The position numbers and the translations under genes are program-made. A stretch of 32,000 nucleotides of DNA, from NCBI RefSeq assembly GCF_008000775.2, contig NZ_CP042905.2:2580001-2612000 (forward strand), read 5' to 3'. How positions within the stretch are numbered: position 1 is the first letter of the stretch; every line of letters starts with the position of its first letter. Source of the stretch: Promethearchaeum syntrophicum. Its GTDB lineage: Archaea; Asgardarchaeota; Lokiarchaeia; Sigyniarchaeales; Promethearchaeaceae. The notes beneath the pieces are model-generated. The model was not told where the DNA came from. It searched no databases and saw only the letters and a list, made by a program, of their open reading frames with translations. This document shows positions 1,883 to 32,000 of this stretch, piece after piece.

Positions 1883-3601
1883 ATGAAAAGTAAAGAACTC
1901 TACAAAATATCGAATTATGTTTATAATGAATCTTTTTTACAATCGCATTTAGATATGTCGGGAGCGAATGTTTCTTCAGTCATGGAAAAAATGGAAAAGA
2001 ATAAGAAGTATATTAAAAATCAAGTTATTTTTACGAAAATAATAATGGTATTATATGTTTCCTTCTTAATTTTCCTTCCAATTACAGGTTATCTTCAGAT
2101 CCAAAATGCAATAAACGAAGGAGTTTCAATAACATGGGTCCTTTTTTTAGGGGGGGCAGTAAATGGAGCTTATTTTCTTTTTCAATTTGCATATCTATTA
2201 ATGTTTGGAATGTTTAGTTCTACAGGACTGTTCACAGGGAATTTATTTCACTGGATATCTACTTTGCCAATAAAAAGAAAGGACATGAATAAAATTGGAA
2301 TGATGACATTATTCCGTGTTATTGATGCACAATTTATTGCCTTAATGTTAATATTTCCCCTTGCAACTGCCATTATCACCAAAAGTATAATAATTACTCT
2401 CATTAGTCTAGGATTATCTACTCTAAATACAATTTTTTCCTTTAATGTATTGATAATTTTATCGAAAAAATTTGCAGGAGTTATTAAAGGGGCAGATTCC
2501 AATGCTAAAGGCTCTAATTTAGCGCGAATTTTATTCTTGGTTGGTTATCTAGCAACAACTATGTTTGCAGTAATAGGGATACAATTTCTTCCTGAAGTTA
2601 TCAATTCGCTATATTATCAAGTACCTCCAAACCTAGCTTTATTTGAAACTTTAAATCAATGGATTAGTTTAATCCCCTTTCCTGTAAGTGGAGGTTATTT
2701 ATTAACTAGCTTTCTAATTGGATTAAATAATGTCGGAATGAATTTAATTCTACCAATATTAGTTGGTTTGGCCATTTTCGCTCTTATAGACTATGTTATG
2801 CTTAAAAAATCTCTTAAAATCATGAATGATGTCATTATTTCAAGATCAGATTCAAAAAAGCAAAATTTCAAGGTTTCTACTGTATCAGATGTTTCAGTTA
2901 CTGTTGTTTCCCCCATTAAAGCTTTTTTTCAAAGAGATAAAAGCATGATATTAAGAGATATCCAAGCTATCATTTTTATAATTATTCCTGTGATTTTACC
3001 ATGGATACCCTTTTTTATCATGATAAGACCTGAAACAGGATTTGTTGAAATTGAAGGATTTGGGGTTATGGAATTGATTTATTGCGTGATGGGAGCAACT
3101 ATGAATATATTGGGTTTAACAATGGTTGAGAAATCCGGAGCAACGATTAATGCTTCATTACCTATCATTGTACGTGATCAAGTTAAAGCAAGGTTGAAAT
3201 GGGCATTTAGTATAATACCTTTGGGTACTTTACTTCCAGTTGTTATGTACATTGGAAATTCTCTTTTTTGGGATGTCTTCATTATCCAAATTTCAATTTC
3301 TTTTGTTGGCTTACTAATTGGAACATTCTCATTATTATTGTGGATTAGATTATTTGGAAAAATGAAAAAAAAATATGTTTTAGACGAAATCCATTTTAGA
3401 TATAAGATTGCAAAAAATATTTTAATTGTTGTTATAGACTTCATTCTCTTGGTGCTTCTTACTATCGGTTTTGTAATATTGTTAAATTCTTGGAATCTTA
3501 GTAAATTTTCTATAATAATTTTCCCGATTGAATTAGTTCTGGCATTAATTTTATATCTTGTATATAACAAAATGTTTCCCAAACCAAAAAAAATCAATTA
3601 A
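1883..3601 (+). CDS. Large polytopic membrane protein, putative permease partner of the ABC ATPase
   Basis: The ATG lies 11 nt after the ATPase stop, with GAGGT about 8 nt upstream, which suggests operon coupling. The 572-aa protein has ten or more hydrophobic helices. The permease role is inferred from context only; no family motif recognised. Confidence 0.7.
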   Translation: MKSKELYKISNYVYNESFLQSHLDMSGANVSSVMEKMEKNKKYIKNQVIFTKIIMVLYVSFLIFLPITGYLQIQNAINEGVSITWVLFLGGAVNGAYFLFQFAYLLMFGMFSSTGLFTGNLFHWISTLPIKRKDMNKIGMMTLFRVIDAQFIALMLIFPLATAIITKSIIITLISLGLSTLNTIFSFNVLIILSKKFAGVIKGADSNAKGSNLARILFLVGYLATTMFAVIGIQFLPEVINSLYYQVPPNLALFETLNQWISLIPFPVSGGYLLTSFLIGLNNVGMNLILPILVGLAIFALIDYVMLKKSLKIMNDVIISRSDSKKQNFKVSTVSDVSVTVVSPIKAFFQRDKSMILRDIQAIIFIIIPVILPWIPFFIMIRPETGFVEIEGFGVMELIYCVMGATMNILGLTMVEKSGATINASLPIIVRDQVKARLKWAFSIIPLGTLLPVVMYIGNSLFWDVFIIQISISFVGLLIGTFSLLLWIRLFGKMKKKYVLDEIHFRYKIAKNILIVVIDFILLVLLTIGFVILLNSWNLSKFSIIIFPIELVLALILYLVYNKMFPKPKKIN

Positions 3602-3908
3602 AATCCTAATATAGTGACTTTTGTCATTATTTTTTCTTTTTAAATTTAGCTTTCTTCTTCTTAATCTTAATTTTTCTCAGAAGTCAATCCATTTTTTCAG
3701 TCTCGAACTTTAAGATGTTTTTTGAAAATTTTTCATAATGTTATAATTTATAGCGCTAGGACCAATTATTATAACTAATTAAATAATTGGTTAGTCTGCT
3801 GTAACTCAATTAAAGAATTTATTACAGCTTGTAGAATTCGATATAAATAATCATTGAATTCGACTTATGACCTATAATTATTTGAACTACTAGAAGGAAA
3901 AGATTAAA

Positions 3909-6900
3909 ATGATTTTAACCAAGATTTTGAAAGGGAAAATCTTTCATAAAGTAAAGAAAAGATCACCTCTTACGAAATATTTATTTTCATTTTTGCTTTT
4001 TCTCTCATTTTCTGCTGTATTATCGGGAATTCAAATATATCCCACAACTCTCGATAATTTTGAAAATGGAGACCAAGCAAAAGAAGATATTTCTCATGAT
4101 TTTCTCGCAATGATTCCAAAAGCAAGTATCGGACCAACCATTGAGAATTTAACCAAAACTGATCTACTTGAATTGGGAGATTATGCAAATATTACAGTCG
4201 ACATAAACCACACCAATGGAGTGGATACAGCTTTCATCGAGATCGGTGGTACTAATTATACCATGACAAAAGGAGCTGGGGTTAACGAATATAACTATAC
4301 ATGGCAACCAAGCGCAGTGGGAAACATCCCTTTCACAATTTATGCTAATGATAGCGTTGGGGGAGAATGGAGTTCACTCCCAGAAGATTCAATCAATGTT
4401 CAAGATACAACTGGACCTTCATTATCATTTTTAACTAAAGTTAATGGTGATCCAACCGAGTTAGGAGTAAATGTTACAATTCGAATCACAGCAACCGATT
4501 TATCAACAGTTGATAGAGTATGGATCAATTTCGATGGAACTAATTACTCAATGAACTCTCTACCGGCTGATGTATACAATTATTCCGCACCACATCCAGT
4601 CGGGACTTATGGATTTACCATTTATGCCAATGATACAGAGGGGAATGAAGCAACTCCAGTTGTAAACTCCATCAGCGTTGAAGACACAATCATCCCAGAC
4701 ATAAATAATGTAGTGGAAGTTAGTGGAGATCCGGTCGAATTTGGAGATTCCATTTATATCCGAGTAAATGTAACCGATTTATCAACGATTGATGATGTCT
4801 GGATTGATTTAGATGGAACTAATTATACTATGAACTACATCAGTGATGATATGTATTATTACACTGCATCTCCGGCAGTTGGGTTACACACCTATACCAT
4901 TTATGCTAATGATACTACAGGAAATGAAGGTTCTACAGGTCCTTATACTATTACTGTATCAGATACAATTGCCCCAACAATATCGAATGTTGTGGAAGTG
5001 AGTGGAGATCCAGTCGAATTTAATGGAGCTATCTATATCAGAGTTAATGTAACCGATTTATCAGGTGTTGATGATGTCTGGATTGATTTAGATGGAACCA
5101 ATTATACTATGATCTACATCAGTGATGATATGTATTATTACACTACATCTCCGGCAATTGGGTTGCACACCTATACAATTTATGCTAACGATACTGAAGG
5201 AAATGAAGGTTCTACAATTGCTTATACTATTACTGTATCAGATACAATTGCCCCAACAATATCGAATGTTGTGGAAGTGAGTGGAGATCCAGTCGAATTT
5301 AATGGAGCTATCTATATCAGAGTTAATGTAACCGATTTATCAGGTGTTGATGATGTCTGGATTGATTTAGATGGAACCAATTATACTATGATCTACATCA
5401 GTGATGATATGTATTATTACACTACATCTCCGGCAATTGGGTTGCACACCTATACCATTTATGCTAACGATACTGAAGGAAATGAAGGTTCTACAATTGC
5501 TTATACTATTACTGTATCAGATACAATTGCCCCAACAATATCGAATGTTGTGGAAGTGAGTGGAGATCCAGTCGAATTTAATGGAGCTATCTATATCAGA
5601 GTTAATGTAACCGATTTATCGGGTGTTGATGATGTCTGGATTGATTTAGATGGAACCAATTATACTATGATCTACATCAGTGATGATATGTATTATTACA
5701 CTACATCTCCGGCAATTGGGTTGCACACCTATACCATTTATGCTAACGATACTGAAGGAAATGAAGGAGCCACATTGGCTGATACAATCACCGTGGAAGA
5801 CACTATCGATCCGGTATTAGATGTTCCGGTTGAAGTGAGTGGAGATCCTGTCGAATTTAATGGAGCCATCTATATCAGAGTTAATGTAACCGATTTATCA
5901 ACGATTGATGATGTGTGGATCGATTTAGATGGGACCAATTACACCATGATCTACATCAGTGATGATATGTATTATTACACTACATCTCCGGCAGTTGGGT
6001 TACACACTTATACCATTTATGCTAACGATACTGAAGGAAATGAAGGTTCTACAGGTCCTTATACAATCACCGTAGAAGACACTATCGATCCGGTATTAGA
6101 TGTTCCGGTTGAAGTGAGTGGAGATCCGGTTGAATTTAATGGAGCCATCTATATCAGAGTTAATGTAACCGATTTATCAACGATTGATGATGTCTGGATT
6201 GATTTAGATGGAACTAATTATACTATGAACTACATCAGTGATGATATGTATTATTACACTGCATCTCCGGCAGTTGGGTTACACACTTATACAATATATG
6301 CTAATGATACTTCAGGAAATGAAGGTTCTACAGGTCCTTATACTATTACTGTATCAGATACAATTGCCCCAACAATATCGAATGTTGAGGAAGTGAGTGG
6401 AGATCCGGTTGAATTTAATGGAGCCATCTATATCAGAGTAAACGTGACCGATATATCAGGTGTTGATGATGTCTGGATTGATTTCGATGGAACCAATTAT
6501 ACTATGATCTACATTAGTGATGATATGTATTATTACACTACATCTCCGGCAATTGGGTTGCACACCTATACCATTTATGCTAACGATACTGAAGGAAATG
6601 AAGGTTCTACAATTGCTTATACTATTACTGTATCAGATACAATTGCCCCAACAATATCGAATGTTGTGGAAGTGAGTGGAGATCCGGTTGAATTTAATGG
6701 AGCTATCTATATCAGAGTTAATGTAACCGATTTATCAGGTGTAGATGATGTCTGGATTGATTTAGATGGAACCAATTATACTATGATCTACATCAGTGAT
6801 GATATGTATTATTACACTGCATCTCCAGCAGTTGGGTTACACACCTATACCATTTATGCTAATGATACCGAAGGAAATGAAGGAGCCACATTGGCTGATA

Positions 6901-9900
6901 CAATCACCGTAGAAGACACTATCGATCCGGTATTAGATGTTCCGGTTGAAGTGAGTGGTGATCCTGTCGAATTTAATGGAGCCATCTATATCAGAGTTAA
7001 TGTAACCGATTTATCAACGATTGATGATGTGTGGATCGATTTAGATGGGACCAATTACACCATGATCTACATCAGTGATGATATGTATTATTACACTACA
7101 TCTCCGGCAGTTGGGTTACACACTTATACCATTTATGCTAACGATACTGAAGGAAATGAAGGTTCTACAGGTCCTTATACAATCACCGTAGAAGACACTA
7201 TCGATCCGGTATTAGATGTTCCGGTTGAAGTGAGTGGTGATCCTGTCGAATTTAATGGAGCCATCTATATCAGAGTTAATGTAACCGATTTATCAACGAT
7301 TGATGATGTGTGGATCGATTTAGATGGGACCAATTACACCATGATCTACATCAGTGATGATATGTATTATTACACTACATCTCCGGCAGTTGGGTTACAC
7401 ACTTATACCATTTATGCTAACGATACTGAAGGAAATGAAGGTTCTACAGGTCCTTATACAATCACCGTAGAAGACACTATCGATCCGGTATTAGATGTTC
7501 CGGTTGAAGTGAGTGGAGATCCGGTTGAATTTAATGGAGCCATCTATATCAGAGTTAATGTAACCGATTTATCAACGATTGATGATGTCTGGATTGATTT
7601 AGATGGAACTAATTATACTATGAACTACATCAGTGATGATATGTATTATTACACTGCATCTCCGGCAGTTGGGTTACACACTTATACAATATATGCTAAT
7701 GATACTTCAGGAAATGAAGGTTCTACAGGTCCTTATACTATTACTGTATCAGATACAATTGCCCCAACAATATCGAATGTTGAGGAAGTGAGTGGAGACC
7801 CGACCCAATCAGGATCAAATGTCTATATTCGAGTAAATGTGTCCGATTTATCAACGATTGATGATGTCTGGATCGATTTCGATGGAACCAATTATACTAT
7901 GATCTACATTAGTGATGATATGTATTACTTCTCTAGCTTGTATGTTATCGGAACATATCCTTATTCAATTTATGCTAATGATACATACGGTAACCAAGAT
8001 TCACTTACTGGTTTCGATATTGAGGTTTCAGATACAACACCACCTATAATCTCAAATATTGTTGAAGTAAGTAATGATCCAACAGAATTCAATAGTGATA
8101 TTTATATACGTGTTAATGTAACCCATCCTGTTGGAGTTGATGATGTATGGATTGAATTTAATGGAATTAATTTCACTATGACACCATTGGGAGGGATTAT
8201 GTATTATTACACGGCAACATACGGTATAAACACCTACTCATATACAATTTATTCGAATAGTACAATCGGAATTGAAGGTTCCTCAGGACCTTATACTATC
8301 ACTGTTTCAGACAATACTGATCCTTCCTTAGATATTCCTGTTGAAGTGAGTGGAGATCCAGTCGAATTTAATGGAGCCATCTATATCCGAGTTAATGTAA
8401 CCGATTTATCAACAATTGATGATGTCTGGATTGATTTAGATGGAACCAATTATACTATGATCTACATCAGTGATGATATGTATTATTACACTGCATCTCC
8501 AGCGGTTGGAATATACACTTATACCATTTATGCCAACGACACCTACGAGAATGAAGGTTCTACAGGTCCTTATACAATCACCATAGAAGACACTATCGAT
8601 CCAGTTTTATCCAATGTTGTGGAAGTGAGTGGAGATCCAGTCGAATTTAATGGAGCCATCTATATCAGAGTTAATGTAACCGATTTATCAACGATTGATG
8701 ATGTGTGGATCGATTTAGATGGGACCAATTACACCATGATCTACATCAGTGATGATATGTATTATTACACTACATCTCCGGCAGTTGGGTTACACACTTA
8801 TACCATTTATGCTAACGATACTGAAGGAAATGAAGGTTCTACAGGTCCTTATACAATCACCGTAGAAGACACTATCGATCCGGTATTAGATGTTCCGGTT
8901 GAAGTGAGTGGAGATCCGGTTGAATTTAATGGAGCCATCTATATCAGAGTTAATGTAACCGATTTATCAACGATTGATGATGTGTGGATCGATTTAGATG
9001 GGACCAATTACACCATGATCTACATCAGTGATGATATGTATTATTACACTACATCTCCGGCAGTTGGGTTACACACTTATACCATTTATGCTAACGATAC
9101 TGAAGGAAATGAAGGTTCTACAGGTCCTTATACAATCACCGTAGAAGACACTATCGATCCGGTATTAGATGTTCCGGTTGAAGTGAGTGGAGATCCGGTT
9201 GAATTTAATGGAGCCATCTATATCAGAGTTAATGTAACCGATTTATCAACGATTGATGATGTGTGGATCGATTTAGATGGGACCAATTACACCATGATCT
9301 ACATCAGTGATGATATGTATTATTACACTACATCTCCGGCAGTTGGGTTACACACTTATACCATTTATGCTAACGATACTGAAGGAAATGAAGGTTCTAC
9401 AGGTCCTTATACAATCACCGTAGAAGACACTATCGATCCGGTATTAGATGTTCCGGTTGAAGTGAGTGGAGATCCGGTTGAATTTAATGGAGCCATCTAT
9501 ATCAGAGTTAATGTAACCGATTTATCAACGATTGATGATGTGTGGATCGATTTAGATGGGACCAATTACACCATGATCTACATCAGTGATGATATGTATT
9601 ATTACACTACATCTCCGGCAGTTGGGTTACACACTTATACCATTTATGCTAACGATACTGAAGGAAATGAAGGTTCTACAGGTCCTTATACAATCACCGT
9701 AGAAGACACTATCGATCCGGTATTAGATGTTCCGGTTGAAGTGAGTGGAGATCCGGTTGAATTTAATGGAGCCATCTATATCAGAGTTAATGTAACCGAT
9801 TTATCAACGATTGATGATGTGTGGATCGATTTAGATGGGACCAATTACACCATGATCTACATCAGTGATGATATGTATTATTACACTACATCTCCGGCAG

Positions 9901-12900
9901 TTGGGTTACACACTTATACCATTTATGCTAACGATACTGAAGGAAATGAAGGTTCTACAGGTCCTTATACAATCACCGTAGAAGACACTATCGATCCGGT
10001 ATTAGATGTTCCGGTTGAAGTGAGTGGAGATCCGGTTGAATTTAATGGAGCCATCTATATCAGAGTTAATGTAACCGATTTATCAACGATTGATGATGTG
10101 TGGATCGATTTAGATGGGACCAATTACACCATGATCTACATCAGTGATGATATGTATTATTACACTACATCTCCGGCAGTTGGGTTACACACCTATACCA
10201 TTTATGCTAATGATACCGAAGGAAATGAAGGAGCCACATTGGCTGATACAATCACCGTAGAAGACACTATCGATCCGGTATTAGATGTTCCGGTTGAAGT
10301 GAGTGGAGATCCGGTTGAATTTAATGGAGCCATCTATATCAGAGTTAATGTAACCGATTTATCAACGATTGATGATGTCTGGATTGATTTAGATGGAACT
10401 AATTATACTATGAACTACATCAGTGATGATATGTATTATTACACTGCATCTCCGGCAGTTGGGTTACACACTTATACAATATATGCTAATGATACTTCAG
10501 GAAATGAAGGTTCTACAGGTCCTTATACTATTACTGTATCAGATACAATTGCCCCAACAATATCGAATGTTGAGGAAGTGAGTGGAGACCCGACCCAATC
10601 AGGATCAAATGTCTATATTCGAGTAAATGTGTCCGATTTATCAACGATTGATGATGTCTGGATCGATTTCGATGGAACCAATTATACTATGATCTACATT
10701 AGTGATGATATGTATTACTTCTCTAGCTTGTATGTTATCGGAACATATCCTTATTCAATTTATGCTAATGATACATACGGTAACCAAGATTCACTTACTG
10801 GTTTCGATATTGAGGTTTCAGATACAACACCACCTATAATCTCAAATATTGTTGAAGTAAGTAATGATCCAACAGAATTCAATAGTGATATTTATATACG
10901 TGTTAATGTAACCCATCCTGTTGGAGTTGATGATGTATGGATTGAATTTAATGGAATTAATTTCACTATGACACCATTGGGAGGGATTATGTATTATTAC
11001 ACGGCAACATACGGTATAAACACCTACTCATATACAATTTATTCGAATAGTACAATCGGAATTGAAGGTTCCTCAGGACCTTATACTATCACTGTTTCAG
11101 ACAATACTGATCCTTCCTTAGATATTCCTGTTGAAGTGAGTGGAGATCCAGTCGAATTTAATGGAGCCATCTATATCAGAGTTAATGTAACCGATTTATC
11201 AACGATTGATGATGTGTGGATCGATTTAGATGGGACCAATTACACCATGATCTACATCAGTGATGATATGTATTATTACACTGCATCTCCGGCAGTTGGG
11301 TTACACACTTATACCATTTATGCTAACGATACCGAAGGAAATGAAGGTTCTACAGGTCCTTATACAATCACCGTAGAAGACACTATCGATCCGGTCTTAT
11401 CCAATGTTGTGGAAGTGAGTGGAGATCCAGTCGAATTTAATGGAGCCATCTATATCAGAGTTAATGTAACCGATTTATCAACAATTAATGATGTCTGGAT
11501 TGATTTAGATGGAACCAATTATACTATGATCTACATCAGTGATGATATGTATTATTACACCACATCTCCGGCAGTTGCGGTGCACACCTATACCATTTAT
11601 GCTAATGATACTGAAGGAAATGAAGGTTCTACAGGTCCTTATACAATCACCATAGAAGACACTATTGGCCCTATTTTATCAAACTTAGTCGAAGTGAGTG
11701 GTGATCCAACCCAATCCGGTCAAGATATATATATCCGTCTAAATGTATCTGATTTCTCAACTTTAGACGATGTATGGATCGATTTTGATGGAATAAATTA
11801 TACGATGACTCCACTGAGTGGTGATATGTATTACTACACAGATTCTTATGGTTTCGGTGTGTATTCGTATACAATCTATGCTAATGATACTTATGGTAAC
11901 ACAGCCTCAATATTAGGCCCAGATATTACAGTTACGGATATAACTGCACCTATTATATCTAATTTAGTTGAAGTTAGTGGCGATCCTGTTGAATTTAATG
12001 GATCAATTTATATTCGGATAAATGTGACAGATCCATCAGGAGTAGATTCTGTGTGGATCGATTTCGATGGGACAAATTACACGATGACTTCACTAAGTGG
12101 TGATATGTATTATTACTCTACTTCACCTGCTGTTGGTACCCATAATTATACTATATATGCAAATGATACATATGGAAATGAGGGTATGATTTCAGGAGAT
12201 ATTTCAGTATCAGAAATTGTCCAATCTATTATCATCTTCGACCTTACTGATTATGCTACAGATTCATTAGCTGCTGATTCTGATTTTAATGTATCCTTAC
12301 CAATTGATAATAGCAGTACGATGGACTGGGCAAAAGTATATTTTATAATTGTTTCTGGACCTAGTTCTGCAGCACCAGGTGATAATTGGACGCCAATTGA
12401 TCTTGTAAATGGCCAAGCAACTATTTCATCAGAATACTATGATTCTGGAGATACACTATCCTACTATTTTGAAATCAGAGATACTGATGGGAATATCTTT
12501 TATGTTTTCAGTTCGGGAATAAGTACGAGTAATGCTACAGCTCAGACAGCTGCCTTTTCATTCGAAATAACCAATGCTACAGGAGGAACACCACTACCTT
12601 TTGATATCATGCAATATCTGCCTTATATATTAGGAGGTGTGGGAGTATTAGCGGTCATTTTAGTTTCTGTAGGAATCAAAAAATCGGCATCAAAGAGATC
12701 TATTTCTAAGAAAGATCTCCGCAATATGAAGGAAGCGGGTGATGCTGCAAAAGAATTACTTGAACGACAGAAAACCATACAAAAAGAAGCGAGTTATGCA
12801 GAGAAGAATAAGGATTATTACACAGTGGTTTTATTGTATGAAAAATTAATCGAAATTGCCGATGCCTTGTTCAAATTTGGTCGACCGGAAGCAGCAGATG

Positions 12901-13349
12901 ATATTAAGACCTATAAAGCCAAAATTATTAAATATCAAGAAAAGGTCCAAGAAGAACCAAAAACACAGGGAAAACCCAGTAATAAGCAAGTAGCTCAACA
13001 AAAAGCAGCTGAGTATTTGAAGATGGCCGATGATGCAGAAAATTCTAATGATTTTCTGCAAGCTCTCGCCATTCATCATCAAATTTTAATATTACGGGAA
13101 GAAATTAAAGAAAAATCTTTAGTTTCAGCTACCAAAGCGAAAATTAAAACAATAATTGCCAAAATCCCTAATATAAAAGAGATTAGCGCCGGAATTGTCA
13201 AAGAAGCAGAAAACAAATATAAAGAAAAAGATTATATGACAGCTTACGCCAATTATCGCTATTTGAAGACTATTTTTGAAGCGCTCGAGGATAAGACTTT
13301 AATTAAAACCGTAGACAAATTGATATCGGATGTTTCTAAATATATTTAA
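3909..13349 (+). CDS. Giant (3,146 aa) type-I membrane-anchored surface/adhesin-like protein with 29 tandem 93-aa beta-sandwich-like repeats and a helical cytoplasmic tail
   Basis: Single uninterrupted 9,441-nt ORF. It has an N-terminal basic region plus a hydrophobic signal/anchor (LTKYLFSFLLFLSFSAVLSG), then a 279-nt periodic coding array. A C-terminal TM helix (LPYILGGVGVLAVILVSVGI) is followed by KKSASKR and 222 aa of K/E/A-rich helical sequence. NxS/T sequons are dense throughout. Confidence 0.9.
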   Translation: MILTKILKGKIFHKVKKRSPLTKYLFSFLLFLSFSAVLSGIQIYPTTLDNFENGDQAKEDISHDFLAMIPKASIGPTIENLTKTDLLELGDYANITVDINHTNGVDTAFIEIGGTNYTMTKGAGVNEYNYTWQPSAVGNIPFTIYANDSVGGEWSSLPEDSINVQDTTGPSLSFLTKVNGDPTELGVNVTIRITATDLSTVDRVWINFDGTNYSMNSLPADVYNYSAPHPVGTYGFTIYANDTEGNEATPVVNSISVEDTIIPDINNVVEVSGDPVEFGDSIYIRVNVTDLSTIDDVWIDLDGTNYTMNYISDDMYYYTASPAVGLHTYTIYANDTTGNEGSTGPYTITVSDTIAPTISNVVEVSGDPVEFNGAIYIRVNVTDLSGVDDVWIDLDGTNYTMIYISDDMYYYTTSPAIGLHTYTIYANDTEGNEGSTIAYTITVSDTIAPTISNVVEVSGDPVEFNGAIYIRVNVTDLSGVDDVWIDLDGTNYTMIYISDDMYYYTTSPAIGLHTYTIYANDTEGNEGSTIAYTITVSDTIAPTISNVVEVSGDPVEFNGAIYIRVNVTDLSGVDDVWIDLDGTNYTMIYISDDMYYYTTSPAIGLHTYTIYANDTEGNEGATLADTITVEDTIDPVLDVPVEVSGDPVEFNGAIYIRVNVTDLSTIDDVWIDLDGTNYTMIYISDDMYYYTTSPAVGLHTYTIYANDTEGNEGSTGPYTITVEDTIDPVLDVPVEVSGDPVEFNGAIYIRVNVTDLSTIDDVWIDLDGTNYTMNYISDDMYYYTASPAVGLHTYTIYANDTSGNEGSTGPYTITVSDTIAPTISNVEEVSGDPVEFNGAIYIRVNVTDISGVDDVWIDFDGTNYTMIYISDDMYYYTTSPAIGLHTYTIYANDTEGNEGSTIAYTITVSDTIAPTISNVVEVSGDPVEFNGAIYIRVNVTDLSGVDDVWIDLDGTNYTMIYISDDMYYYTASPAVGLHTYTIYANDTEGNEGATLADTITVEDTIDPVLDVPVEVSGDPVEFNGAIYIRVNVTDLSTIDDVWIDLDGTNYTMIYISDDMYYYTTSPAVGLHTYTIYANDTEGNEGSTGPYTITVEDTIDPVLDVPVEVSGDPVEFNGAIYIRVNVTDLSTIDDVWIDLDGTNYTMIYISDDMYYYTTSPAVGLHTYTIYANDTEGNEGSTGPYTITVEDTIDPVLDVPVEVSGDPVEFNGAIYIRVNVTDLSTIDDVWIDLDGTNYTMNYISDDMYYYTASPAVGLHTYTIYANDTSGNEGSTGPYTITVSDTIAPTISNVEEVSGDPTQSGSNVYIRVNVSDLSTIDDVWIDFDGTNYTMIYISDDMYYFSSLYVIGTYPYSIYANDTYGNQDSLTGFDIEVSDTTPPIISNIVEVSNDPTEFNSDIYIRVNVTHPVGVDDVWIEFNGINFTMTPLGGIMYYYTATYGINTYSYTIYSNSTIGIEGSSGPYTITVSDNTDPSLDIPVEVSGDPVEFNGAIYIRVNVTDLSTIDDVWIDLDGTNYTMIYISDDMYYYTASPAVGIYTYTIYANDTYENEGSTGPYTITIEDTIDPVLSNVVEVSGDPVEFNGAIYIRVNVTDLSTIDDVWIDLDGTNYTMIYISDDMYYYTTSPAVGLHTYTIYANDTEGNEGSTGPYTITVEDTIDPVLDVPVEVSGDPVEFNGAIYIRVNVTDLSTIDDVWIDLDGTNYTMIYISDDMYYYTTSPAVGLHTYTIYANDTEGNEGSTGPYTITVEDTIDPVLDVPVEVSGDPVEFNGAIYIRVNVTDLSTIDDVWIDLDGTNYTMIYISDDMYYYTTSPAVGLHTYTIYANDTEGNEGSTGPYTITVEDTIDPVLDVPVEVSGDPVEFNGAIYIRVNVTDLSTIDDVWIDLDGTNYTMIYISDDMYYYTTSPAVGLHTYTIYANDTEGNEGSTGPYTITVEDTIDPVLDVPVEVSGDPVEFNGAIYIRVNVTDLSTIDDVWIDLDGTNYTMIYISDDMYYYTTSPAVGLHTYTIYANDTEGNEGSTGPYTITVEDTIDPVLDVPVEVSGDPVEFNGAIYIRVNVTDLSTIDDVWIDLDGTNYTMIYISDDMYYYTTSPAVGLHTYTIYANDTEGNEGATLADTITVEDTIDPVLDVPVEVSGDPVEFNGAIYIRVNVTDLSTIDDVWIDLDGTNYTMNYISDDMYYYTASPAVGLHTYTIYANDTSGNEGSTGPYTITVSDTIAPTISNVEEVSGDPTQSGSNVYIRVNVSDLSTIDDVWIDFDGTNYTMIYISDDMYYFSSLYVIGTYPYSIYANDTYGNQDSLTGFDIEVSDTTPPIISNIVEVSNDPTEFNSDIYIRVNVTHPVGVDDVWIEFNGINFTMTPLGGIMYYYTATYGINTYSYTIYSNSTIGIEGSSGPYTITVSDNTDPSLDIPVEVSGDPVEFNGAIYIRVNVTDLSTIDDVWIDLDGTNYTMIYISDDMYYYTASPAVGLHTYTIYANDTEGNEGSTGPYTITVEDTIDPVLSNVVEVSGDPVEFNGAIYIRVNVTDLSTINDVWIDLDGTNYTMIYISDDMYYYTTSPAVAVHTYTIYANDTEGNEGSTGPYTITIEDTIGPILSNLVEVSGDPTQSGQDIYIRLNVSDFSTLDDVWIDFDGINYTMTPLSGDMYYYTDSYGFGVYSYTIYANDTYGNTASILGPDITVTDITAPIISNLVEVSGDPVEFNGSIYIRINVTDPSGVDSVWIDFDGTNYTMTSLSGDMYYYSTSPAVGTHNYTIYANDTYGNEGMISGDISVSEIVQSIIIFDLTDYATDSLAADSDFNVSLPIDNSSTMDWAKVYFIIVSGPSSAAPGDNWTPIDLVNGQATISSEYYDSGDTLSYYFEIRDTDGNIFYVFSSGISTSNATAQTAAFSFEITNATGGTPLPFDIMQYLPYILGGVGVLAVILVSVGIKKSASKRSISKKDLRNMKEAGDAAKELLERQKTIQKEASYAEKNKDYYTVVLLYEKLIEIADALFKFGRPEAADDIKTYKAKIIKYQEKVQEEPKTQGKPSNKQVAQQKAAEYLKMADDAENSNDFLQALAIHHQILILREEIKEKSLVSATKAKIKTIIAKIPNIKEISAGIVKEAENKYKEKDYMTAYANYRYLKTIFEALEDKTLIKTVDKLISDVSKYI
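4155..12245 (+). repeat. In-frame tandem array, 29 x 279 nt (93 aa), inside the giant gene
   Basis: Hand alignment shows unit starts at 4713 + 279k (checked at 4992, 5271, 8619, 8898, 9177, 9456, 9735, 10014, 10293). Two degenerate units lie upstream (4155, 4434) and three diverged units at the 3' end (11409, 11688, 11967). The span 8091 nt equals 29 x 279 exactly. Confidence 0.95.
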
Positions 13350-26331: not shown

Positions 26332-26350
26332 TTTTTTTTAGTTTTTTTTT
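26332..26350 (+). terminator. Oligo-T tracts after the OFOR operon
   Basis: T8 (26332-26339) and T9 (26342-26350) immediately follow the stop codon. Confidence 0.45.
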
Positions 26351-26503
26351 CATCCTTTTATTCTTGAATAATAAAATATTTGCCTAATCTTTTTGAAAGT
26401 GAAATAATTAAACAAAATATTGATAGTTTTTATAAATTCATTTACATGAACTATAATTTTTCTACGAATTTTTATTCTATCCATAATTTTGAGTTAAACC
26501 AAT

Positions 26504-27748
26504 ATGCAGAACCTACAAAAACACTCATTTAACCGTATGGTCTTTACTTTAATGGTTATTAACTTCACGGAAATCTTAGGATTTAGTTTAATGATGCCAG
26601 TCTTACCATTTCTTGCTAAATTCTTAGGATTAAATATAGTTCAAATTGGTCTCCTGGGAAGTATATTTAGTTTCTGTCAATTTTTTGCAAGTCCGATTAC
26701 GGGGAAATTGAGTGATCGTTATGGTAGAAAACCTTTGTTAATCATAAGTCAATTGAGTACATTTACAGGATTTCTCCTTTTAGGCTTAGCCGATTCAGTT
26801 CCTCTTTTAATTATTGCAAGAGTTGTTGATGGATTATTTGGGAGTAATATGACAGTGATTCAAGCCACTATAAGTGATATTACTGAACCGAAAGATCGCA
26901 CTCGCATCTATTCTATCTCCTCAGGAGTATTTGGAGCAGGACTGATTATTGGTCCCGCCTTGGGAGGAATTCTTGCAGAAATAAACTATTCCATTCCAAT
27001 GTATAGTGCAGCTGCAATTTCTCTTGTCTCCATTCTTTTAGTAATTATATTCCTTCCAGAAACATATCATGGAAAATCTCAAAGTTTTTCATTAAAATTC
27101 AGCGATATAATTCCTACCAAATCTCTTTATAAATATTGGAAGAATCGCACTATTCGGTATCAAATAATTATGATGATCAGCTATACATTTGGATTTATGT
27201 TGTTTATCAATAACTTTACATTAATAGCCATCGAGGATTACAGTATTACAACCTTATATGCGGGATATTATCGAACATATATTGGGATCCTTCGAGTAAT
27301 CCTTCAATTTCTCTTTATAAATCGTTTATTATCTAAATTTGGAGAAAATAGAACTTTAGTTTCTGGTATAATAGCACTTATGATTAGTATGATTCTAATG
27401 ATTTTTTCATCTGAAAAATGGATGGTTTTCATCCCAATGACGTTTTTAGCATACGGTACCGGGGTAGCGCGCCCAATTTTAACAAGTCAACTTACTAAAA
27501 GTGTCTCCAAATCAGAATTTGCAACCGTTTTAGGTGTTAATAATTCTCTTAATAGTTTGGGTCAAATTATTACTCCCATATTAGGAGGCGCAATGCTCAT
27601 GTATCTTGGATCAATGTGGATTATGGTTTCTTCGATCTTGATTTACGTATTATTTCTCATTTCGAAAAAAAAGAGAGATATTCATATCAATGATATATCT
27701 CTAAAAAAAGATTCAATTGTACCAGATACAATAATTGAGCAATTCTAA
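26504..27748 (+). CDS. Major facilitator superfamily transporter (DHA1/tetracycline-efflux-like)
   Basis: About 12 TM helices. MFS motif A GKLSDRYGRKPLL lies between TM2 and TM3, and motif-C-like GPALGG is in TM5. Confidence 0.85.
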   Translation: MQNLQKHSFNRMVFTLMVINFTEILGFSLMMPVLPFLAKFLGLNIVQIGLLGSIFSFCQFFASPITGKLSDRYGRKPLLIISQLSTFTGFLLLGLADSVPLLIIARVVDGLFGSNMTVIQATISDITEPKDRTRIYSISSGVFGAGLIIGPALGGILAEINYSIPMYSAAAISLVSILLVIIFLPETYHGKSQSFSLKFSDIIPTKSLYKYWKNRTIRYQIIMMISYTFGFMLFINNFTLIAIEDYSITTLYAGYYRTYIGILRVILQFLFINRLLSKFGENRTLVSGIIALMISMILMIFSSEKWMVFIPMTFLAYGTGVARPILTSQLTKSVSKSEFATVLGVNNSLNSLGQIITPILGGAMLMYLGSMWIMVSSILIYVLFLISKKKRDIHINDISLKKDSIVPDTIIEQF

Positions 27749-27986
27749 AGAGCATAGCTTTATTTTATCTAATAGAATTGCAAAATTAAATCAAAACTCA
27801 TCTTTACCTTCTTTATTATTGATAATGAAATAAATTTCAAATTTAGTAAAAATTTTTTTGAAAATATATTTGAAGATATTGTGCCAAGAAAAGAACGTCG
27901 GAATATATTATATTAAAAATTACACAGTGTATTTTCTCGATATTCTCGCCTTTTAAATATAAATTTTTATGAAAGGAAAAATGATT

Positions 27987-28622
27987 TTAAGCCATTTTGC
28001 TTGACATCAATTTAAGGGGAAGTCCCCCAAATAAATAGACTAAAAATTCAAAGAAAAATGATCCGTCAACAACTTGAATACCATTTATACGACTATTAAA
28101 TGCATCAATAGTATTTCCCATTAAGTTACCTATGGTGATCATTCTACAATGATTTATAATATCAACAGCTTTTTGATTTCCGTATTCCTTCACAAGATTT
28201 ATGACCGCTGTCTTTGAAGGATTTTCTTTACTTTCTGCGAAATGTTGTGCAAATGCTAGAGCAGTAATTTCTTCTTTTTTTAACCCTATAAAATCTAAAT
28301 CCAGGATATTTTTGATTTCTTCATCCGTACATCCTGATTCAATTGCCATTTTGGTATGCGCCCATTCACAAATTCTACAGCCATTTACTGCAGTTACGGC
28401 GAGCATGATTCGTTCAGAAAAATCATAGCTAATTCGTTTGGATTTCATTGTATCCATTATGATTCTTCTATTTCTTATTATAGATTGCACGGTTTTCATG
28501 AAAGAACGAAAATTAAATACTCTTTTTGTAAAATAGTGACTATTTCCATGAATTATGTTATAGGTTCTGTTCATTGGTTCATTGGTTAAACAATCATTTA
28601 GAGATATGTCGATTTCTTTCAT
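27987..28622 (-). CDS. AhpD-like / carboxymuconolactone decarboxylase family protein
   Basis: VNGCRICEWAH (CxxC..H) lies in a helical context, followed by EEI..IL, which resembles the CMD/AhpD core. The N-terminal ~70 aa are unassigned and the true start is uncertain. Confidence 0.55.
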   Translation of the reverse strand: MKEIDISLNDCLTNEPMNRTYNIIHGNSHYFTKRVFNFRSFMKTVQSIIRNRRIIMDTMKSKRISYDFSERIMLAVTAVNGCRICEWAHTKMAIESGCTDEEIKNILDLDFIGLKKEEITALAFAQHFAESKENPSKTAVINLVKEYGNQKAVDIINHCRMITIGNLMGNTIDAFNSRINGIQVVDGSFFFEFLVYLFGGLPLKLMSSKMA

Positions 28623-28808
28623 ATTAAAATCACTTATTGATTAAAAGTACAAATATAGATAATTTTATCTGAAAAATCATAAATAAATTTTTTTTTTCTT
28701 TTTAAAAAAACTTCAATTTTTATGCAAAAATCATGTATTATCTAGATGTCATCCAATTACGTGAAACAGCAACTTTATTCTTAAAACCTACCTATTTTAT
28801 ACATTAAA

Positions 28809-28816
28809 TTTATAAA
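28809..28816 (+). promoter_or_regulatory. Candidate archaeal TATA box for a leaderless transcript of the RHH-integrase pair
   Basis: tttataaa is centred about 27 nt upstream of the ATG at 28839, and there is no Shine-Dalgarno-like sequence in between. Confidence 0.3.
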
Positions 28817-28838
28817 TTTAAACTTCCTAATATTATAT

Positions 28839-29300
28839 ATGGCTAAACCAAAACCAAGTGAAAAAATGGATAGTATAAGATTTACGATACCTGAATCAGA
28901 AAAGAAAATCTGGAAAGAGTATGCCAAAGGATTAGGTTTTCCTTTAGCACGAATAATTAAAGAAACCATGAATCAAAGGATTAATAATTTTAAAGCGAAT
29001 TCATCAAAGACAGAAAACGAAATAATGAAAGAACTTCAAAATCTCAGTGAAAAAATAAATTTTTTAAATGTGAAAGTTGAAAAAAAGATAATAGAAGCCC
29101 CAATTCCAAAAATTGAGATTGATAAAGATGAAATCAGATCTCGAATAGAAATGTTCCTTTCAGAATTTCCCAATGGATTAACCAGGAAGAAACTTATTAC
29201 ATTTCTAAATATTGATTCTAAGATAGTTAGAAAGATATTGGTTGAAATGAAGAATGATAATATTATCTATAATGAAGATTTGAAATGGAGATTGGTATAA
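28839..29300 (+). CDS. Small DNA-binding protein: N-terminal ribbon-helix-helix-like, coiled-coil linker, C-terminal winged-helix-like (putative element regulator/excisionase-like)
   Basis: SIRFTIPESEKKIWKEYAKGLGFPLARIIKETMNQ fits a strand-helix-helix pattern. The C-terminal LTRKKLITFLNIDSKIVRKILVEMKNDNIIYNEDLKWRLV looks wHTH-like. The 3' end overlaps the integrase start by 16 nt. Confidence 0.5.
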   Translation: MAKPKPSEKMDSIRFTIPESEKKIWKEYAKGLGFPLARIIKETMNQRINNFKANSSKTENEIMKELQNLSEKINFLNVKVEKKIIEAPIPKIEIDKDEIRSRIEMFLSEFPNGLTRKKLITFLNIDSKIVRKILVEMKNDNIIYNEDLKWRLV

Positions 29301-30247
29301 TGGATTATTTAAAATTGTTTTTAGATAACCGATCAACCTCAGGATCGGGGACTGTGAAAGTTTATAAAAGTGCTATTCTTCGTTTCTTAAAATTTATTCA
29401 AAAAACCGATTTGGAAGACATAAATCGCGAAGATTGGGAGAAGTATAGAAAATATTTAGATGGAAGAAACCTGAAAAAGAGTTATAAATTAAATCAAGCA
29501 AAATATCTCAGGTCTTTCTTTGATTTTGTGGAAGATAATTTACGATCTAAACATATTGACTTCTTTAATCCAATTCCAAAAATAAAATTTGTTAGATTTA
29601 ACCCTGATCAAGGACTAAATTTAAAGGAAAAGGAAGAAAAAGAAAAGGATGAATTTTATACCATAGAACAAATGAAATTAATCTTTAGTAAATCCAATCT
29701 AGTAGATTACGAACATTTTATGCAAATAATCCTACTAACTTTTTGTGGAATGAGAGGCAGTGAAGTAATGAGCATAAAAAAGGATAATCTTGATTTGGAT
29801 AATAGATACCTGGTAACTGGTCAAGAAATGAATGCTCGTAAATCCCAAAAAGATCTTTATTATGTATTCCCCGAATTAGTAGCAAATATGTTATGGGATT
29901 ATCTTCAAATCCATGAAAAGAAATATGGAAAAGATGTAAATTGGTTATTTCCTTCTCATTTTTACAATCATAAAAATTATGCAAAAATCAGAAGCCTTCA
30001 ATCGTTCTTAACTTCTTTGAATGTTCCTTTCAAATGTAGAACCCATAAATTTAGGCATTCAATTTCAAGATTTAGAAGAGCAAATAACTTTTCTCGTGGA
30101 GATCGAGAAACATTAAGTAATCATTCAAGTTTATCTTTGGAAGATCGAATATATGCAAAAATTCCGATTGAAAAAAGAATAAAAATATATGATGAATGTT
30201 TTCCCAAAGAATACAAAGCATTACTGTTACATATTGATTCGCTTTGA
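29285..30247 (+). CDS. Tyrosine recombinase / phage-type integrase
   Basis: An N-terminal SAM-like core-binding region is followed by catalytic-domain blocks: CGMRGSEVMSI (Arg I), HKFRHSISRF (H-x-x-R) and SNHSSLSLEDRIYAKI (His/Tyr nucleophile). Confidence 0.85.
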   Translation: MEIGIMDYLKLFLDNRSTSGSGTVKVYKSAILRFLKFIQKTDLEDINREDWEKYRKYLDGRNLKKSYKLNQAKYLRSFFDFVEDNLRSKHIDFFNPIPKIKFVRFNPDQGLNLKEKEEKEKDEFYTIEQMKLIFSKSNLVDYEHFMQIILLTFCGMRGSEVMSIKKDNLDLDNRYLVTGQEMNARKSQKDLYYVFPELVANMLWDYLQIHEKKYGKDVNWLFPSHFYNHKNYAKIRSLQSFLTSLNVPFKCRTHKFRHSISRFRRANNFSRGDRETLSNHSSLSLEDRIYAKIPIEKRIKIYDECFPKEYKALLLHIDSL

Positions 30248-30400
30248 ATACTATAACATTCAGATGTCATGTATCTTCGCGAAATACCTATTTCACGTAG
30301 AATCCTATAGTTCTAGATAACATTTAGAAATATTTTTTTCTTAGACAAGATAAAAATTGAAAAAAATATTGATTTATCTTGGCTAATTTTTTTTTCATTA

Positions 30401-30415
30401 ATTTTGTGGGAAATT
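30401..30415. repeat. 15-bp direct repeat attttgtgggaaatt (left copy) bounding the iteron module
   Basis: Exact copy at 30903-30917, 502 bp away. Confidence 0.85.
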
Positions 30416-30479
30416 ATTTTTTGGATTTAGTAACAGAAATTATTTTTTAATTTTTATTTCCTGATTTCTTAAAAAACAT

Positions 30480-30904
30480 GGTAGCAATGGTAGCAATGGT
30501 AGCAACTTTTTTTTCCATCTAAAACTGTTTAGTATGGGATAAAAAAATTAAATTATAATACGATAATGAAATTTATGTTAAAAAAATACTAAATTTGTTT
30601 AGGTATTGAAGTAATATTCTTCTAAAAATAGTTCTTGAGAATTCGAAAAAATATTAAAATTGGTAGCAATGAAAGTAACAATGGTAGCAATTTCTAATTT
30701 TGTTACTAAATGTTACTATTTGCTACTTTTTTTTGGTAGCAATTTTTCTTTCTAATACACTTTATTTTTAATTTATTTTTGATAAAATTGTTTATTTTTA
30801 TAGTTGCTACCATGCTACCATAAATTTTTAAATTTTTTTTCCCAGATATTTTTCAAACAATATTTATCTTTTTGGAAATCGGTAGACAAAACTATTGGTA
30901 GTAT
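30480..30904. repeat. Iteron cluster: GGTAGCAA core in direct and inverted orientation in a gene-free AT-rich region
   Basis: Perfect direct copies at 30480, 30489 and 30498 (9-bp tandem triplet), 30662, 30683 and 30735. Perfect inverted copy ttgctacc at 30804, followed by atgctacc at 30812. Degenerate inverted copies at 30701, 30711 and 30721 have 10-bp phasing. Degenerate direct copies lie at 30671, 30881 and 30897. Confidence 0.85.
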
Positions 30905-30917
30905 TTTGTGGGAAATT
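30903..30917. repeat. 15-bp direct repeat attttgtgggaaatt (right copy)
   Basis: Exact copy of 30401-30415. Confidence 0.85.
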
Positions 30918-31013
30918 TTCTTGAAATCTTCCCTTTAGTTATTTTATAATCATAAGAAAATAAATCAAAAATGTAGAAGAAATTGAACTGTTTTCAATCT
31001 TTAAATTTTCAAA

Positions 31014-32000
31014 TTAATTCATAATCGAAAAAAAATCTCCTTTCTCTTGAAGATATTTCTCGTTAATCCATTTTTCAAAAAGTAAACTTAAATTGTCTTC
31101 GGTTAGATTTGGTTTCCTGGCTATTGTCTCCCAAATATCTTCAAAAGTAAATCTGTTTTGATTATTTTTCGCAAATTCTTTTATAAATTCCTTTATTTCT
31201 ACTTGAATTTCTTTGGATAAAATATTTTTAGATATTGAATTTAAAGTAATTCCATCATCATCTTTCTTGATTTCTTCCATTTTAGAATCTGGGATTTTAT
31301 TTCCAGTTAACTTCCGATATTCTAAATTTACTCCCCTTTTTGACTTTCCACATGATTCCCATCGAAAGTTTACAGTAATTTTTACTTCAGGATCAATTTG
31401 TTCAAAATATTCTCCTAATTGAGGTAAACTCCTAAAAATTCTAAACGATTTTCTTCTTGCATAATCATTATACTCTCCTAAAAAACGGTGTGTTAAATAG
31501 ATCACTTCTTTTATCCGATCAACCATTAAAATCGGAATTTTTGTTTCATAATTATACTCGCTTTCTATAAATGATAAAATTGCATAAAGATCTTCTTTCT
31601 TTTTTTCTATTGTGGCATCTTCAAACTCTTTAATAAAATCAAGTAAATGATCTGACTTATTTTCTAAGAACTTATCTAAAATTATATTTGGATATTCAGG
31701 GAGATATTTATTAAAAATAAATTTCCAAATTGACAAACTAACAAGTATGAAGGCATTTATTGTAATTCTTCTTGGATCCGATAAACGAATATTATTGGAT
31801 TTACATAATTGAGCAATATATTTTCTCTTCTCCAATATAATATATTCTAAAACATCCAAATCATTTCTTATTTTTACTTGATCTTTTTTATCAATCCCGA
31901 ATTTTCCAAAATCTTTAATATATTTTATTGCTTCGGAAAGAAATAGATATCCACACGCTTTTGAATCTTTTATTGAATAAGAAATGTCTTCAAATATTGA
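31014..32000 (-). CDS. Hypothetical protein, 5'-truncated by the window edge (possible C-terminal winged-helix); candidate mobile-element gene
   Basis: The ORF-track start at 31859 is a TTG. The frame stays open for all 47 codons up to nt 32000 (SIFEDISYSIKDSKACGYLFLSEAIKYIKDFGKFGIDKKDQVKIRND...), so the gene continues beyond the window. No catalytic motif recognised. Confidence 0.6.
   Translation of the reverse strand, partial: SIFEDISYSIKDSKACGYLFLSEAIKYIKDFGKFGIDKKDQVKIRNDLDVLEYIILEKRKYIAQLCKSNNIRLSDPRRITINAFILVSLSIWKFIFNKYLPEYPNIILDKFLENKSDHLLDFIKEFEDATIEKKKEDLYAILSFIESEYNYETKIPILMVDRIKEVIYLTHRFLGEYNDYARRKSFRIFRSLPQLGEYFEQIDPEVKITVNFRWESCGKSKRGVNLEYRKLTGNKIPDSKMEEIKKDDDGITLNSISKNILSKEIQVEIKEFIKEFAKNNQNRFTFEDIWETIARKPNLTEDNLSLLFEKWINEKYLQEKGDFFSIMN

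Follow-up and report, generated by a model that had tools for sequence, protein, structure and literature searches.

A candidate iteron replication origin beside a gene for a predicted Cch-like helicase in an integrated element of a cultured Lokiarchaeon

What is the role of a dense field of short repeats, in both orientations, that lies in a gene-free stretch between an integrase gene and an unannotated open reading frame (ORF)? The question is raised by 32,000 nucleotides of the chromosome of Promethearchaeum syntrophicum (positions 2,580,001 to 2,612,000 of contig NZ_CP042905.2; we call this whole stretch the window and number it from its first letter). Near its right edge an earlier note, made from the letters and their ORFs alone, had pointed out an array of 8-bp repeats that might be either an iteron origin of the plasmid or viral type or a set of recombinase arm sites. 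We consider it likely that a mobile element, integrated in the P. syntrophicum chromosome, uses the array as its vegetative replication origin, and that the element's initiator is the 1013-residue protein encoded beside the array, here called Rep.

The repeat array and the gap around it

The perfect octamer GGTAGCAA occurs seven times in the 32-kb window, and all seven copies lie inside 332 bp (30480–30811), with none outside that interval. Six are on the plus strand (30480, 30489, 30498, 30662, 30683 and 30735) and one is on the minus strand (30804), exactly where the earlier note had placed them. From dinucleotide-preserving shuffles of the 32 kb, 0.39 copies would be expected, and none of 100 shuffles contained seven or more; the Poisson probability of the cluster, set against the density outside it, is ~1e−18. 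The iteron has the extended consensus WTGGTAGCAAT, and TTGGTAGCAA is a near-palindrome, almost identical to its own reverse complement. With a core of 8 bp and a spacing of 9–10 bp, the array extends over ~430 bp.

At the outer end, three perfect copies stand head to tail on the plus strand with a 9-bp period (30480–30505). A central cluster (30662–30742) mixes direct and inverted copies on both strands. Its direct copies are perfect at 30662, 30683 and 30735, and a further one with two mismatches, AGTAACAA, occupies 30674–30681 and not 30671, the start previously given for it. The inverted copies of this cluster, with two, three and one mismatches, keep the exact 10-bp spacing described before, and they begin at 30700, 30710 and 30720, each one base to the left of the reported starts (30701, 30711 and 30721). 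Closest to rep, an inverted pair on the minus strand (30804–30819) combines the perfect copy at 30804 with a seven-of-eight match 8 bp away at 30812. The latter is real, as the note had it, and with the minus-strand copy at 30720, which we add, it accounts for the one-mismatch copies. The two-mismatch copies are those at 30674 and 30700 together with two degenerate direct copies on the plus strand, GGTAGACA and GGTAGTAT (30881–30904), whose starts at 30881 and 30897 had been read correctly. Because copies with up to two mismatches are only ~3-fold enriched in the array (19.6/kb, against 6.5/kb outside), single degenerate copies, this last pair included, are weak evidence.

The array sits in a gap of 766 bp (30248–31013; 22% GC) between the convergent 3' ends of the integrase and rep genes, which we propose as the origin region. 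As the earlier note stated, the gap holds no ORF of 60 aa or more, and since both flanking genes converge on it by their 3' ends it is not the promoter region of either. A scan of 28000–32000 with Rfam matched no RNA family. Two AT-rich spacers separate the iterons. The first (30506–30661; 156 bp) has iterons of the same direction on both flanks. The AT-richness previously remarked on at 30506–30660 was borne out here, in that 30530–30629 (16% GC) is the fourth least stable 100-bp stretch of the 32 kb. The second spacer (30743–30803; 61 bp) is flanked by iterons that face each other, and it contains the 50 bp with the lowest GC content in the gap (30750–30799; 10% GC).

A second motif flanks the iteron field. 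Its left copy, ATTTTGTGGGAAATT (30401–30420, plus strand), recurs as an 18/20 direct repeat at 30903–30922 on the same strand, and this repeat is possibly the site of a second protein. An inverted TGGGAAA is found at 30838, and the density of TGGGAAA is 3.9/kb in the gap against 0.3/kb outside. The motif (TGGGAAA or TGGAAA, similar to an origin-recognition box, ORB), enriched in the gap of the window, is not consistent among the homologous origins described below.

The Rep protein and the arrays of its relatives

The ORF at the right edge (31014–32000, minus strand) is the 3' end of the rep gene. By an exhaustive HMMER search it corresponds to residues 686–1013, the C-terminal 328 aa, of P0005, a 1013-aa NCBI hypothetical protein (DSAG12_04345) whose gene would continue to ~34055, past the window. 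The rep stop codon is at 31014, ~110 bp from the nearest iteron copy (30904). Word-indexed homology searches with the 328-aa fragment and with full-length P0005 recovered the protein itself and nothing else, and the family, whose members are ~1000–1040 aa long, was found by exhaustive HMMER alone. Rep carries a Walker A motif (GMGGVGKST) and a Walker B motif (LYVDEID), and the residues G558, G563, K564, D606, N654 and R669 are invariant in the family. Pfam returned sub-threshold VapE-like, DUF5906 and AAA matches for the family over the Walker A region, and PHROG a single sub-threshold match to ‘DNA primase’. There was no relevant match in NCBIfam, nothing significant in a sequence profile search of the PDB, no tblastn match among deposited phage and plasmid records and none in a scan of viral contigs for Rep.

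We modeled Rep with AlphaFold2 (AF2) from a 10-sequence alignment, at a mean predicted local distance difference test score (pLDDT) of 75; a single-sequence model of the 328-aa fragment (pLDDT 50) was uninformative. The order of domains is a mixed N-terminal region (1–297), a β-rich OB-like domain (298–400), a P-loop ATPase, a helical region and, at the C terminus, a winged helix (948–1013). This last domain is predicted to consist of helices 948–964, 971–978 and 986–998 and a β hairpin at 1002–1011 (pLDDT ~70–83); its codons lie at 31017–31214 on the minus strand, and we propose it as the reader of the iterons. When the model was compared with the PDB by Foldseek, the top match was Cch, the helicase of the staphylococcal cassette chromosome mec (SCCmec; 5dgk, E 1e−14, template-modeling score 0.61 on the target), with MCMs next. 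In BFVD, a collection of predicted viral structures, the top named matches were DUF927 proteins, ‘replication protein B’ and primase-helicases. On the strength of these fold matches and the conserved ATPase motifs, we assign the rep product to the initiator-helicases of the class that comprises Cch and the Rep proteins of Staphylococcus aureus pathogenicity islands (SaPI). A helicase of this kind with a C-terminal winged helix, at the right edge of the window, supports the suggestion that the array is the iteron origin of a plasmid- or virus-like element. Conservation within the family is also lowest in the winged helix, at 17–23% identity against 29–45% in the ATPase.

Further support comes from the homologues of rep, which we examined in nine loci (L021–L029) on small virus- or plasmid-like contigs. 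These represent seven distinct elements, L026 and L027 forming one pair and L028 and L029 another. In all seven, a gene-free gap of 570–1950 bp follows rep, directly or past one or two small ORFs (28–33% GC in the gaps measured, those of L021–L024), and each gap has a 7–8-bp repeat of its own in both orientations with a tandem spacing of 9–11 bp. The repeat is GCTGACGC in L021 (three copies in tandem with an 11-bp spacing, besides dispersed TGACG/CGTCA), AAGTCACA in L022 (nine perfect copies and none elsewhere in the locus), TGTAAGCT in L023 (eight perfect copies, again none elsewhere), AAATACG in L024 (~7 copies), TGTTAGAA in L025 (10 copies), YTTACAA in L026 and L027 (~10 copies) and GGAACATT in L028 and L029 (9 copies). 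An unbiased scan for the densest 8-mer cluster of each locus fell in the gap downstream of rep in the window, L022, L023, L028 and L029; the cluster of L025 was recovered by a relaxed scan limited to the DNA downstream of rep, and that of L021 by 7-mers. The window, L022 and L023 have a block pattern in common: a run of three direct copies, inverted ones next to it, and pairs farther out across spacers of 60–150 bp.

One pair of relatives links the iterons to a particular part of Rep. The proteins of L026 and L028 are 87% identical overall and 93–98% identical in each 60-residue block up to residue 720; past that point identity is 72–80%, and in the last 120 residues 47–58%. Divergence is thus confined to the last ~240 residues and is strongest in the last ~120. 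The two origins (L026:4860–5470 and L028:6825–7495) are collinear at 75–84% nucleotide identity, and all nine of the iteron cores that can be aligned differ in the same way, with matching orientation: xTTAC in L026 and GTTCC in L028. The unique sequence between the iterons, including a G9 tract, is conserved. At the level of sequence, a concerted change of the iterons together with focal divergence of the Rep C terminus is the signature expected of a reader and a site that co-evolve. This co-variation is seen in L026 and L028 and not in the window itself; as a natural specificity swap, the pair would predict which residues read the iterons.

Two of the relatives carry features of their own. 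In L022, three copies of the palindrome GTTGGAAAYTTTCCAA (4470, 4491 and 5008) flank the AAGTCACA array as a second class of repeat, which we take to recall dyad ORB-like elements. The 28-kb contig of L021, whose Rep homologue is P0006, has a weak match to the Toprim domain of Topo VI-A/Spo11, of the ‘Topo mini-A’ type, at 3469–4371, and among its other products are a serine resolvase and a 1307-aa Laminin_G_3 protein.

Counter-evidence, rival explanations and the integrase side

Several observations weigh against an origin read by Rep. Between L026 and L028, the small ORF that lies between rep and the origin has been replaced as well, and the corresponding small ORF of L025 encodes a winged helix-turn-helix (wHTH) protein, so a separate small protein could read the iterons in some relatives. 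In the window, L021 and L022, no small ORF separates rep from the array. Other intergenic DNA of the window and the genome is as rich in AT as the spacers, and AT-richness by itself therefore counts little. Rep falls below the gathering score of every Pfam family, and DUF927 (PF06048) is absent from the matches at E ≤ 0.01 for P0005–P0009, P0013 and P0016. The link between Rep and Cch is accordingly one of predicted structure, unaccompanied by a DUF927 match in sequence. Finally, the N-terminal ~300 aa of Rep are uncharacterised, and no primase or polymerase was identified.

The array could instead consist of arm-type or accessory sites, bound by the adjacent tyrosine recombinase or by its 153-aa partner in an intasome at an att site beside the integrase gene (int). 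Both flanking genes are as the earlier note had called them. The integrase (29285–30247, plus strand; 320 aa) retains the catalytic R...HxxR...H...Y, whose R, HxxR, H and Y are invariant among its relatives, and is 100% identical to the NCBI tyrosine recombinase of P. syntrophicum (MK-D1, the cultured Lokiarchaeon). The gene for the 153-aa protein (28839–29300, plus strand), which has a weak ribbon-helix-helix (RHH) N terminus and a weak wHTH C terminus, overlaps the start of int by 16 nt, and four relatives retain the pair, as does L021 in distant form. The array begins only ~230 bp past the int stop, RHH proteins typically read short tandem repeats, and in another Lokiarchaeal metagenome-assembled genome (L003) a 49%-identical integrase gene is directly followed by three ATAACAACAAnTGTTTC repeats. 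In addition, synteny with a sister species breaks 13 bp past int, where an att site could lie.

That same comparison speaks against arm sites. The contig of the sister Promethearchaeum species (L001) is collinear with the window through the oxidoreductase genes (POR), CMD, the 153-aa gene and int, at ~83–85% nucleotide identity (84% protein identity for the integrase and 73% for the 153-aa protein). Homology ends at 30260–30261, 13 bp past the int stop, and all DNA to the right is specific to MK-D1. Downstream of int, the DNA of L001 is unrelated and has neither a perfect copy of GGTAGCAA nor another repeat array; of one-mismatch copies L001 has two, where 3.3 are expected. Because the int locus of L001 has no array, the array belongs to the MK-D1-specific DNA and is therefore independent of the integrase module. 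Among the relatives of rep, L021, L023 and L024 have an integrase gene directly upstream of rep and yet carry their arrays after rep, 3–5 kb from int, and L022 and L025–L029 have arrays with no int called beside rep. Iteron identity tracks the Rep C terminus, and Pfam finds in the integrase only a SAM-like core-binding N-terminal domain and the catalytic domain, although failure to detect an arm-binding domain does not prove its absence. The suggestion of sites for the integrase or the RHH/wHTH protein is thus unsupported, and we regard it as improbable.

The RHH/winged-helix protein and the integrase of L021 are distant homologues of the pair in the window, and from this homology and the gene order we conclude that a module of RHH/winged-helix gene, int, rep and origin is common to the window and its relatives. 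In MK-D1 the segment of rep and origin has the reverse orientation, and the proposed origin thereby comes to lie between int and rep. No att-like repeat of at least 13 nt is common to the left junction (28600–28850) and the origin region. Scans of metagenome and viral contigs for the integrase family gave no match, and L004 (which has int) and L022 (which has rep), from the same sample, share no 20-mers and hence cannot be joined.

About equally improbable, in our view, is a partition (centromere-like) or copy-control site that an RHH or wHTH centromere-binding protein would bind, separate from an origin or additional to it. The centromeres of ParR, ParG and omega are typically arrays of short direct and inverted repeats, and the gene for the RHH/wHTH protein is close by. 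Against such a role, the part of the element within the window has no gene for a ParA- or ParM-type NTPase (the element continues beyond the window), the arrays co-localise with rep across the family and not with RHH genes, and L001, which encodes a close ortholog of the 153-aa protein, has no such sites. As for copy control, the iterons of plasmids commonly double as copy-control sites (PMC4980987).

The host's chromosomal origin, oriC, with the repeats as origin-recognition boxes, is highly unlikely. The DNA is gene-free and AT-rich, with repeats in both orientations, and the second motif, as GTGGGAAAT, bears what we take to be a vague resemblance to ORB cores. No orc1/cdc6 gene flanks the gap, however, and the region is missing at the syntenic position in the sister species; its neighbors are an integrase and a Rep of the mobile-element type whose relatives reside on small virus- or plasmid-like contigs. 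We give no more credence to a provirus DNA-packaging site (cos or pac) read by a small terminase, for although a viral contig (L012) has a two-orientation array of the 10-mer TGGTAGCAAT flanked by genes for an HNH endonuclease and a TerS-like protein, the window shows no gene for a terminase, an HNH protein or a capsid, L012 and the window have no protein similarity, and the rep-linked pattern explains the window better.

The likeness of the L012 array is nonetheless striking. A scan of viral contigs for the motif found mostly coding Gly-Ser-Asn repeats and one non-coding look-alike, at L012:1907–2065 (IMGVR_UViG_3300005282_000174; 43% GC), which has eight perfect copies of GGTAGCAA, the TGGTAGCAAT form, a triplet spaced at 9 bp and both orientations. 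They occupy part of the 585 bp that separate the HNH and TerS-like genes, where a cos or terminase recognition site would be expected. The likeness is probably convergence, which is plausible because the array was found by scanning 2.9 million contigs for the motif itself.

Around the integrase module, a few other features stand out. The three repeats in L003 (11024–11085) are ~21 bp long; beyond them lies an unusually GC-rich non-coding stretch, and the contig ends before any rep gene is visible. The start of the 153-aa gene is preceded, at a distance of ~25 bp, by a palindromic TATA-like element, TTAAATTTATAAATTTAA, with AAACAGCAA before it (window ~28795–28812). This element is kept at the nucleotide level in the window, L001 (~5000–5020) and L004 (~625–645), with integrases that are only 45% identical, and the element is likely the promoter or operator of the RHH/wHTH-integrase operon. 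Further left, the gene for an MFS transporter (26504–27748) is an insertion in the window (26349–27846) relative to L001, in which the oxidoreductase gamma subunit is directly followed by the CMD gene; conversely, L001 has a UPF0175 gene between the CMD and 153-aa genes that is missing in MK-D1. An ORF of 3146 aa at 3909–13349 has a GC content of 36–39% against ~30% in its surroundings.

Proposed mechanism and known systems

The closest model for the locus is provided by staphylococcal islands. In SaPI and SCCmec, iterons of five or six nucleotides directly follow rep and are bound by the C-terminal winged helix of its product (PMC9371898; PMC7581432, citing Ubeda et al. 2007, 2012). The iterons flank an AT-rich center, at least two on each side and pointing opposite ways; the assembly of two hexamers is assumed, followed by ATP-independent melting of the DNA and self-loading of the helicase (PMC9371898; PMC7581432). 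SCCmec elements of pattern 2 have their putative origin between the genes for the helicase and the recombinase (PMC9371898, PMC7581432).

Since the window fits each architectural point of these origins, we propose binding, melting and self-loading by Rep, by analogy with SaPI Rep, SCCmec Cch and Cch2 and the alpha protein of phage P4. The winged helix of Rep would read the 8-bp iterons (WTGGTAGCAAT), and cooperative binding to the tandem and inverted blocks would build up Rep oligomers to either side of an AT-rich spacer, which would then melt. The more likely site of melting is 30743–30803, because it is flanked by facing iterons and holds the lowest-GC 50 bp of the gap, with 30506–30661 as the alternative. 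Rep would load itself as the replicative helicase, and enzymes of the host or the element would prime and extend. The integrase and the RHH/wHTH protein would serve integration and excision rather than origin recognition. A bolder reading, which we hold to be possible rather than probable, is that rep and the 766-bp gap form a self-sufficient minimal replicon native to a cultured Asgard archaeon. The replicon would then belong to a family of Lokiarchaeal integrative elements not described before, with a self-loading helicase of the MCM/Cch-like kind as initiator and, at the C terminus of that helicase, a specificity module that can be swapped.

An iteron origin combined with the self-loading initiator helicase of an integrative element is of a kind well known in bacteria, and because the mechanism is of this known kind the finding extends existing knowledge and overturns nothing. 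What is new is the Lokiarchaeon host, the ~1000-aa unannotated initiators that have no family at the sequence level, and the retention of the architecture in at least eight distinct elements. The locus would also give a function to ~1000-aa ‘hypothetical proteins’, a family without any qualifying match in Pfam, PHROG or NCBIfam, and the layout of the staphylococcal islands, a self-loading helicase gene followed by iterons, appears also to be present in Lokiarchaeia. A literature search found no description of the MK-D1 element or of its origin. The replication of Asgard mobile elements is little understood. One preprint presents that of skuldviruses by Topo mini-A as a hypothesis only and identified no replication protein for Fylgjavirus 1 (10.64898/2026.02.13.705702).

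The locus thus offers a testable candidate pair of origin and initiator in the first cultured Asgard species, and its main practical value is as a candidate native replicon for that archaeon. A published genetic system for an Asgard archaeon is not known to us. Should the origin be active, it and its initiator would be the first such pair available to experimenters for building an Asgard shuttle vector. If the proposed mechanism is correct, the element would be an archaeal counterpart of SaPI and SCCmec replication in bacteria, with a bearing on the movement of MCM-like helicases between mobile elements and cells.

Other replicons share part of this architecture. The classical iteron plasmids (pSC101, R6K, RK2, F and P1) likewise have element-specific, repeated initiator sites by an AT-rich unwinding region and rep (PMC4980987). 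Their iterons are longer, at 17–22 bp, and their small Reps with tandem winged helices have no helicase activity and recruit the host's DnaA and DnaB. A classical iteron-plasmid origin, of the RepA, pi or TrfA type, does not agree with the 8-bp core and the 1013-aa helicase-type initiator. Satellite phage P4 is an integrative element whose alpha protein has an N-terminal primase of the DnaG/toprim type and needs a second cis site, crr. Alpha is reportedly a multidomain helicase with a C-terminal winged helix that binds octamer iterons in both orientations. It differs in that neither a primase N terminus nor a crr-like site has been identified in the element of the window, and the two initiators have no detectable sequence similarity. 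ORF904 of plasmid pRN1 combines a prim-pol domain, a superfamily 3 helicase and a winged helix, and the origin, 3' of its gene, is described as a stem-loop. Like P0005 it is the large multifunctional Rep (~900–1000 aa) of an archaeal mobile genetic element, with a helicase core, a winged helix and an origin 3' of rep, whereas the window has an iteron field, P0005 has no detected prim-pol domain, and there is no sequence similarity between them.

SaPI and SCCmec remain the closest systems. The window differs from them in its archaeal (Lokiarchaeia) host and in a Rep that is ~2× longer, with ~300 extra N-terminal residues and no sequence match to DUF927 or Primase_Cterm in P0005. Its iterons are 8 bp long rather than 5–6 bp, its ~430-bp array contains two AT-rich spacers, and the window shows no adjacent primase gene. 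The likenesses concern the element, the initiator and the origin alike. Both are integrative elements with a site-specific recombinase; the predicted fold of Rep best matches Cch; and in each the initiator joins a P-loop/AAA+ helicase core to a C-terminal winged helix, predicted in P0005, as the putative reader of the origin. The origin, a candidate one in the window, lies immediately downstream of rep, and where SaPI and SCCmec set 6–12 short, opposed iterons around an AT-rich region, the copy at 30735 (plus strand) faces those at 30804 and 30812 (minus strand) in the window. The specificity of the iterons is particular to each element, and, as in SCCmec pattern 2, the candidate origin is placed between the genes for the helicase and the recombinase.

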